DNA of 64,000 nt from an uncultured Chloroflexota bacterium. Lineage in GTDB: Bacteria > Chloroflexota > UBA11872 > VXNJ01. This document shows positions 16,661 through 17,952 of the stretch, one piece after another. A program made the translations under genes and the position numbers. The notes beneath the pieces are model-generated. The model made no database searches, was not told where the DNA came from, and saw only the letters and a program-made list of their open reading frames with translations. The stretch covers positions 36,512 through 100,511 of the forward strand of contig CAZBZS010000001.1 in NCBI GenBank assembly GCA_964496475.1. The letters run 5' to 3'. Each line of letters begins with the position of its first letter. Position 1 is the stretch's first letter.

Positions 16661-17952
16661 CTACTGCAGGCAGATGATGGTGAGGCCGGCGCCGCTGTCG
16701 GCAACATAGGCGATCGCGTCGCGAACAAAAATTACGCGGGCGTCGCCCGGGGTTTCGATGACACGCAGCCGCACCGAGGCGTCAAAGAGGGTCAGATCGC
16801 CGCCCGAGACGACAGCCAGGCGGCCATCCCAGGTGACGTGGACGGCATCCTCGGTCGCGAACAGAGACATCACCAGTTCGGCGCGACCGAGGTCAATTAT
16901 GTTGATCGCGGACAGGCCCCCCCCCCCCCCCCCCCCCCCCCCCCCCCCCCCCCGACGCCCCCCCCGACCGCCCCCCCGCCCCCCCCCCCCCCGCGCGACA
17001 AGCAGTAGTGAGGCGGCCACCTCGAACTCAAAATCGAAATTTTCCGGCGCGCGCACACGCGAGATCAGTCCCAGGCCCGGCACTCGGAGTGATTAGATCA
17101 GCTCAGGGTTCACGTGGTTGGCAAGATCGTAAACCAGAATCCCGTAGCGCGGATTGCCAGACACCTGGCCGGAGATGTAGGCAAGGCCGTCGTTAAGGGT
17201 CACTTCAGCGAAGCCCAGGTCCTTGGACCGGGTGGAAAAATGCGGATGTCGTCCAGGTTGGACACACCCAAGACGATCATGTCAACGGCGCCACCCGAGA
17301 CCACTGCCAAGCCGTCATCGAGCGCGACGCCGCCGAATACATCGTTGCGGGTACCCGGAGGCACCAGCAGTTCACGAGGCTCCGCCGGGGTGGTCACGTC
17401 GAACGCTCGCAGGGCGTCGTCCGCTCCCACCTCCAGGACAAGAAGCAATTCGCTATCCGCCGCCACGTCGTCGGGCGAGCCGGGGATGGTGGTGAGCAGA
17501 ACCGGGTTCTCAAGTTCGGCGATGTCCACGATGTGCAGGCCCGCGCCCCGGGCCGATACGTACGCGATGTCGCCGACTACGGCGACGTTGGTCGAGGATC
17601 CATCCAGGGCAAGACTGGACATTATTCCCGGCGTCGGCGTCACCTTTACCGTCGGGGTCGGGGTGTGGTCGGGACGGGGTGTTCTGGTCGGTATTCAAGT
17701 TGGGGTGGATGTGGGCATTGGGGTCAGGGTGGAAAACACGGGCAGATCGGTCGTTGGATCCAGAATGGGATCACCGGTCTCGGGGTCAACCATTGGAGTA
17801 AGCACCGGCGCGGCGGCTTCCTCCAGCTCCTCCCCGCCGAGGAACAGGCAGCCCTGAACGGCTAGGGCAATTACCAATCCGAGCATCAATAACCGGGGTG
17901 TCAAGACGTTCGCACTCTGGTCAGCTAATGCAGGCATGCTATCGGCCCGCAA
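16661..17952 (-). pseudogene. LVIVD-repeat beta-propeller lipoprotein, fragmented into three ORFs and containing a poly-G(C) tract
   Basis: Three minus-strand ORFs in different frames, read in gene order. ORF 17695-17952 carries a signal/lipobox-like N-terminus MLGLVIALAVQGC and a PT-rich linker. ORF 17200-17643 carries LVIVD-like repeats (IAYVSARGAGLHIVDIA). ORF 16661-17083 carries a poly-Gly run encoded by the C-tract, then further LVIVD repeats (AYVADSGAGLTIICLQ). Frame breaks fall at about 17643-17695 and 17083-17200. Confidence 0.55.
16917..16992. repeat. Homopolymeric tract: C37, GACG, C7, GACCG, C7, G, C15
   Basis: Read directly from the sequence: a 37-nt uninterrupted C run at 16917-16953, then C7/C7/C15 runs separated by 1-5 nt. 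Lies inside the LVIVD gene, where the minus strand encodes poly-Gly. The G-rich strand has G-quadruplex potential. Confidence 0.9.

Follow-up and report, generated by a model that had tools for sequence, protein, structure and literature searches.

The tract and the gene that holds it

The window, by which we mean the whole stretch of DNA that was analysed (64,000 nt, 63% G+C), carries on the minus strand at 16661..17952 a pseudogene of an LVIVD-repeat (lipo)protein, recognized by Pfam PF08309, by its homologs and by synteny, and inside this pseudogene lies a C-rich tract of 76 bases at 16917..16992, whose G-rich strand is the minus strand, that is, the sense strand of the gene. The match of the host gene to Pfam PF08309 (LVIVD repeat) was 39.2 bits compared to a cut-off of 20.2. 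Direct reading of the plus strand together with a run-length count gave C37-GACG-C8-GACCG-C7-G-C14 for 16917-16992, with C37 at 16917-16953, C8 at 16958-16965, C7 at 16971-16977, and C14 at 16979-16992. A preliminary description of this DNA, made from the sequence alone, had listed runs of C37, C7, C7, and C15; its C37 and its spacers GACG, GACCG, and G were correct but the three shorter runs are actually C8, C7, and C14. When bases 16916 and 16993 are added the tract becomes 78 nt or 26 codons, where the orthologs have 12 nt, and its minus-strand translation, R-G4-R-G3-R-G2-R-R-G12, is in frame with both flanks, which agrees with the segment of about 25 Gly/Arg residues that had been predicted in the LVIVD frame. 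The tract starts at about codon 320 of a reconstructed gene of about 430 codons, which is about three quarters of the way in.

At a C frequency of 0.32, a stretch of 64 kb should by our own arithmetic contain a C37 about 3e-14 times, and therefore the tract is not due to chance and an explanation is required. Apart from the tract, the only homopolymer of at least 7 nt in the 64,000 bases was a single C7 at 60034, and over the whole 64 kb no 30-nt window outside the tract had more than 67% of any one base. No homopolymer longer than 10 nt occurred in related and control loci that together amount to about 1 Mb. Thus, the earlier remark that the tract is far outside normal sequence was borne out, as no other place in the 64 kb is comparable. 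The spot that ranks second in C content is at 60008-60051, with 67% C over 30 nt and including the C7 at 60034, and by its composition it resembles ordinary Pro/Thr-rich or Gly-rich coding sequence.

When the host gene was aligned with its orthologs four lesions were found on the minus strand, scored relative to the orthologs L090, L086, and L004. There is an in-frame TGA at 17695..17697, where the orthologs have CGA or CGG (Arg); a 1-nt deletion that shifts the frame at about 17238..17239, where CGCATT-TTTCC stands against CGCATTATTTCC in the orthologs; an in-frame TAA at 17093..17095, where the orthologs have CAA or CAG (Gln); and a 15-nt in-frame deletion at 16775..16776, by which the QPRVV of all orthologs is missing. 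The 1-nt deletion and the TAA were identical in the ENA and Logan contigs of sequencing run SRR5007147, the 15-nt deletion was also present in the left contigs of ENA and Logan from this run, and in the region of the TGA the other assemblies matched the window apart from one SNP at 21053. Since the four lesions are shared by MEGAHIT and Logan contigs they are not errors of the window's assembler alone. The lesions are thus inactivating when compared to intact orthologs, reproducible, and not assembler-specific, and judged from its sequence this copy of the LVIVD gene is a multiply inactivated pseudogene with CGA changed to TGA, CAA changed to TAA, and deletions of 1 nt and 15 nt. The preliminary description had considered a pseudogene likely, and the two stops, the frameshift and the 15-nt deletion, seen against intact syntenic orthologs and reproduced across assemblies, support this; its count of two frameshifts, however, was inaccurate because there is one 1-nt deletion, two nonsense codons and one 15-nt deletion that is in frame. 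The host gene fits the family of LVIVD-repeat proteins (PF08309), of which intact syntenic orthologs occur in marine Chloroflexota MAGs, whereas the copy in the window is a pseudogene. The genes for GlyRS, RecO, and the oxidoreductases beside it are intact.

The tract site in related loci

Eight relatives of the LVIVD protein were found in the protein collection and in the alignment the best seven of them shared 46-82% identity with the window; these seven are intact or are fragments that are compatible with an intact gene. The gene order oxidoreductase - LVIVD - GlyRS - RecO is kept in at least six other loci, the syntenic loci coming from other ENA assemblies, four JGI metagenome contigs, a Chloroflexota MAG with 87% GlyRS identity, and a long-read Chloroflexota MAG. 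At the site of the tract, nine orthologous loci, all from other samples and including the long-read MAG, have either GGY GGY GGY CGN, which is 12 nt, or are without this repeat unit, and the tract is absent from every one of them. This comparison of tract length among related genomes had been proposed in the preliminary description, and it gave nine orthologous loci without a tract. All the orthologs that keep the repeat read LLLVA-GGGR-LSAI at this place, as for example in GTT GCC GGC GGC GGC CGA CTC TCC, and when the tract of the window is replaced accordingly the natural 12-nt version of the site is GGCGGCGGCCGC. The 78 nt (Arg/Gly) of the window exceed the 12 nt of the orthologs by 66 nt, in frame, and both flanks of the tract are complete to the base.

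We considered a model in which the true sequence had faded, that is, had been overwritten by G in minus-strand reads or by C in plus-strand reads, and rejected it, as the expected registers matched at only 1-2 of 7-8 positions. When every register was scored the best matches were 5/7, 5/8, and 6/8, which were at unexpected registers and were not significant after correction for multiple testing. Because the non-G bases of the tract match the true downstream sequence at only 2 of 7 positions and the sequence of the left flank continues directly behind the tract, the difference is an insertion of 66 nt and not a sequence that was overwritten.

Other changes were seen in this part of the gene. 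In the P0002 lineage (L086-L089 and L091), which are the closest relatives with 81-82% identity, one whole LVIVD repeat of about 61 aa has been cleanly lost in several samples and with several assemblers. The lost repeat is the one that holds the tract site (...EVDVA|ASVQPRVV...) and it is equivalent to about 16776-17010 of the window. One of its breakpoints is at the same place as the 15-nt deletion of the window and thus this part of the gene seems to be prone to rearrangement. In L094 (MPMF02225766.1) the frame changes at about 2039-2110, near ...VVSGVD / GSRLTLYD..., and this ortholog may have been frameshifted independently, as a second case, or the change may be an assembly error.

In a search for this population in other data, the GTDB species representatives gave a best GlyRS identity of only 87% and the JGI metagenomes gave four loci, all of which belong to other species. 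Exact-protein look-ups of the flanking proteins led to SRR5007147 and to an NCBI record with a contig of 126,660 bp, presumably the source of the window, and nowhere else, and exact look-ups of the two pseudogene fragments (147 aa and 140 aa) and of two ORFs beside the gene, taken with a wrong start codon, gave no match.

Contig breaks and poly-C/G runs in assemblies

Through the exact-protein look-ups the flanking GlyRS and oxidoreductase proteins were traced to run SRR5007147 of project PRJNA352798, a Mediterranean depth profile by Haro-Moreno et al. that was sequenced on HiSeq-4000 with 150-bp paired-end reads and assembled with IDBA-UD followed by re-assembly with SPAdes; the source paper does not mention read trimming and reports Chloroflexi in the deeper layers only (PMC6040077). 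In the MEGAHIT assembly of this run the left contig, k127_249908 (47,447 bp), ends inside the tract at 16951 with a C35, and the right contig, k127_220140 (26,561 bp), starts at 17023, 30 nt past the end of the tract. In Logan the left contig stops with base 16916, directly before the C run, and the sequence is taken up again at 17049. Thus, the tract coincides with the break points in two other assemblies of the same run, and judged by the MEGAHIT and Logan contig ends the stretch 16952..17022, which holds the whole 'degenerate' half of the tract, is unique to the window's assembly.

When the MEGAHIT left contig was compared to the window over 5.7 kb there were five differences, all of them changes to C and all within 29 nt (12961-12989). 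These five substitutions (1763-1791 in L001) are A>C, G>C, T>C, A>C, and G>C, and the sensible sequence is that of the window. By our own translation of the minus strand, two of the five would turn Ala into Gly and Leu into Arg at the very beginning of an EamA transporter gene. This cluster looks like the tail of one error-laden read that found its way into the consensus of MEGAHIT where the EamA gene starts. It shows that run SRR5007147 yields homopolymer-biased miscalls that reach assemblies, and since the cluster stands in the MEGAHIT consensus it suggests that homopolymer-biased reads exist in the run and that the depth is locally very low.

In a control scan of IMG/VR for C35, in which the counts are those of the matches listed, C or G runs of at least 35 nt were present in at least 120 contigs, and in 103 of these listed matches the run was within 400 nt of the end of the locus. 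Many of these runs are built like the tract of the window: in L095, L107, L110, L121, and L142, for example, a pure run passes into a C-rich zone with interruptions, and this in turn into real sequence. The first 105 bases of L128 (IMGVR_UViG_2808606590_000005) consist of C35, T10, the P5 adapter with one mismatch, an 8-nt index, and the Nextera read-1 primer; here the read ran off the end of its template and unremoved adapter and dark-cycle sequence is present in a deposited viral contig. Runs internal to contigs were also found. In L154 a C37 at 1447-1483 is internal to one collinear phage gene, as a single alignment to phrog_13678 (profile positions 7-289 of 300) spans the junction; in L178 a run at 9434-9484 lies between two parts of a RecT-like gene; and in L183 an N-terminal terminase small subunit is joined to a C-terminal DNA methyltransferase across a C-rich zone at 3641-3756, which is probably a chimera. 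As the run of L154 lies within one collinear gene, collinearity of the flanks does not prove a run to be genuine. The internal cases L154 and L125 had no blastn match in phage genomes.

These observations lead to the reading that we favour, and to which we give somewhat better than even credence, namely that the tract is an unresolved assembly junction at which homopolymer read junk bridges a gap of thin coverage, so that it is not trustworthy genome sequence. It is favoured because of the coincidence of the break points, the anatomy that is shared with contig-end junk, the mode of miscalling together with a probably thin coverage, the lack of a tract in all relatives, and the strong avoidance of long G/C repeats in real genomes. 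A probable course of events is that a low-abundance marine Chloroflexota population was thinly sequenced in one HiSeq-4000 run and that a trough of coverage fell inside the dead LVIVD gene. The few reads that reached the natural GGC GGC GGC CGN codons would have had tails that decayed to homopolymer, those coming from the left reading C on the plus strand and those coming from the right reading G on the minus strand. Two assemblers would then have halted at the homopolymer, whereas the assembler that produced the 126.7-kb NCBI contig may have overlapped both homopolymer tips and so closed the gap. About 66 of the 78 bases would then be junk and the true sequence would probably be about 12 nt long, as in the orthologs.

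The tract resembles the homopolymer junk that is found in short-read metagenomes where contigs end or gaps were closed. The likeness lies in the position at the break points, the C35 end, the run followed by a degenerate zone, and the absence from relatives, but there are also differences that count against an artefact. The run is internal, the correct neighbours are joined, no flank is lost (both are intact to the base), and the extra 66 nt keep the frame and were inserted, so that no true sequence was overwritten. The left junction, from unique sequence into C on the plus strand, is opposite in polarity to a classical 3' poly-G tail, and therefore an artefact requires C-type and G-type degraded tails at one site. 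In addition, 25 other (GGC)3/(GCC)3 sites in the window assemble normally; this also counts against an artefact, and because of it we rejected the natural GGC repeat as a site-specific trigger. Lastly, poly-G artefacts of two-colour chemistry arise when dark cycles are called G (PMC13465854), whereas the run here was made on the four-colour HiSeq-4000, for which dark-cycle poly-G is not the textbook expectation. The artefact that was among the options of the preliminary description is therefore our leading reading in the form of an unreliable junction, but the two-colour and nanopore mechanisms that were offered for it are not applicable to a HiSeq-4000 run. On poly-G artefacts on HiSeq-4000 or in MAGs the literature gave general statements only. 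Read-through into a TruSeq/P5 adapter as the source of the CGGTC and CGTC interruptions was rejected after a hand check, as for this the adapter would have to start within the true gene, about 15 nt in.

Should the tract be junk, the 126.7-kb contig was deposited for this MAG with a gap that had been filled by homopolymer sequence. Runs of this kind ought to be removed by screening before they are taken as evidence of phase variation, G4 elements, or poly-Gly linkers.

Other explanations of the tract

The main rival explanation, which we regard as plausible though rather doubtful, is that slippage or duplication expanded the GGC GGC GGC CGN of the dead gene into a long interrupted poly-G that has no function. 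Fragments that carry such a tract would amplify and sequence badly, leading to a collapse of coverage at which assemblers break, and the length and the interruptions would be uncertain. The exact run lengths in the window are untrustworthy under either of these two readings. A real expansion needs no coincidence to explain why the contig breaks of different assemblers share one site, nor to explain the insertion, the intact flanks, the polarity of the left junction, and the normal assembly of the 25 other (GGC)3 sites. The MEGAHIT contig end passes from unique sequence to C35 at a sharp boundary, the flanks are collinear without loss so that the tract was inserted and did not overwrite anything, and in a pseudogene a tract is not selected against. 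The usual final k of short-read assemblers exceeds 37, and as the 37-nt pure run is shorter than this, reads probably spell the left flank, C37, and GACG together. Moreover, the motif of GTCG plus a G run occurs three times, which is duplication-like. Against a real expansion, we know of no finished bacterial genome with a G/C run of such length, and none of the orthologs has so much as an incipient run. A GGC repeat should grow as a triplet repeat and not as a homopolymer, and the tract looks like the contig-end junk of at least 120 unrelated public contigs. Selection is also reported to act in general against monomeric repeats once they reach about 10 bp, and most strongly against poly-C/G (PMC3315296).

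That an uncultured marine Chloroflexota really carries an interrupted poly-G, the longest pure part of which is at least 35-37 nt, at the Gly-Gly-Gly-Arg stretch of a decaying gene is a claim that we consider unlikely and would make only tentatively. To our knowledge, such a pure run would far exceed any G/C homopolymer documented in a bacterial chromosome. If it is true, it is an unusually long bacterial G/C homopolymer that is tolerated solely because the host gene is dead, and it would show in nature how slippage can run away after the loss of selection on a gene. It would then bear on replication slippage and G4 biology, where it would be of moderate interest, and the internal poly-C/G runs of public contigs such as L154 and L178 might deserve a second look.

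That the tract has a function is hardly credible, even when the two functional explanations are taken together. One of these, which we consider very improbable, is that the tract is a contingency locus in which slipped-strand changes of its length switch a surface lipoprotein on and off. It is true that the homopolymer lies on the sense strand of a gene whose LVIVD protein is predicted to be exported, and in this it is like the contingency loci of Neisseria, Campylobacter, and Helicobacter, where G/C homopolymers are found in the sense strand of genes for predicted surface or exported proteins. Phase-variable homopolymeric tracts are typically about 7-20 nt long, whereas the run here is 37 nt, and it lies late in a gene that is already inactivated and whose orthologs are without a tract. 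The frame is closed upstream of the tract by the TGA, the TAA, and the 1-nt deletion, which were reproduced in the ENA and Logan contigs; the tract comes at about codon 320 of about 430 and not near the start; and being in frame it would add Gly and Arg and would not switch expression. With two stops and a frameshift upstream, this late position, and a tract that is in frame, the length of the tract cannot switch expression. Poly-G/C are the most mutable of the monomeric repeats, and in phase-variable species repeats are enriched at the N-terminus (PMC3315296). Three marks of a simple sequence repeat contingency locus were looked for at this site, an intact frame, a tract or repeat in the orthologs, and a position near the 5' end, and none of them was found. 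The C35 at the MEGAHIT contig end, set against the C37 of the window, says nothing about variation in length. The suggestion of the preliminary description that the tract may be a contingency tract is thus not supported, as translation is ended twice and shifted once before the tract is reached and the nine orthologous loci do not have it. In neither case, whether the tract is junk or real, does it regulate a surface protein.

The other functional explanation is a G-quadruplex on the G-rich strand that would regulate, for example, transcription or replication, and this we regard as more improbable still. By inspection, the minus strand reads G14-C-G7-CGGTC-G8-CGTC-G37 and meets the motif of four G-runs of at least 3 with loops of at most 7. 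To this extent the G-quadruplex option of the preliminary description holds, but nothing points to a function: the motif lies inside a pseudogene far from any promoter, it is conserved in no relative, and it is a trivial result of the base composition. Finally, a chimeric misjoin, in which two unrelated contigs were glued through a poly-C hub as public examples such as L183 illustrate, has next to no likelihood here because the flanks are consecutive parts of one gene, and it is refuted by the synteny of oxidoreductase, LVIVD, GlyRS, and RecO in the other loci.
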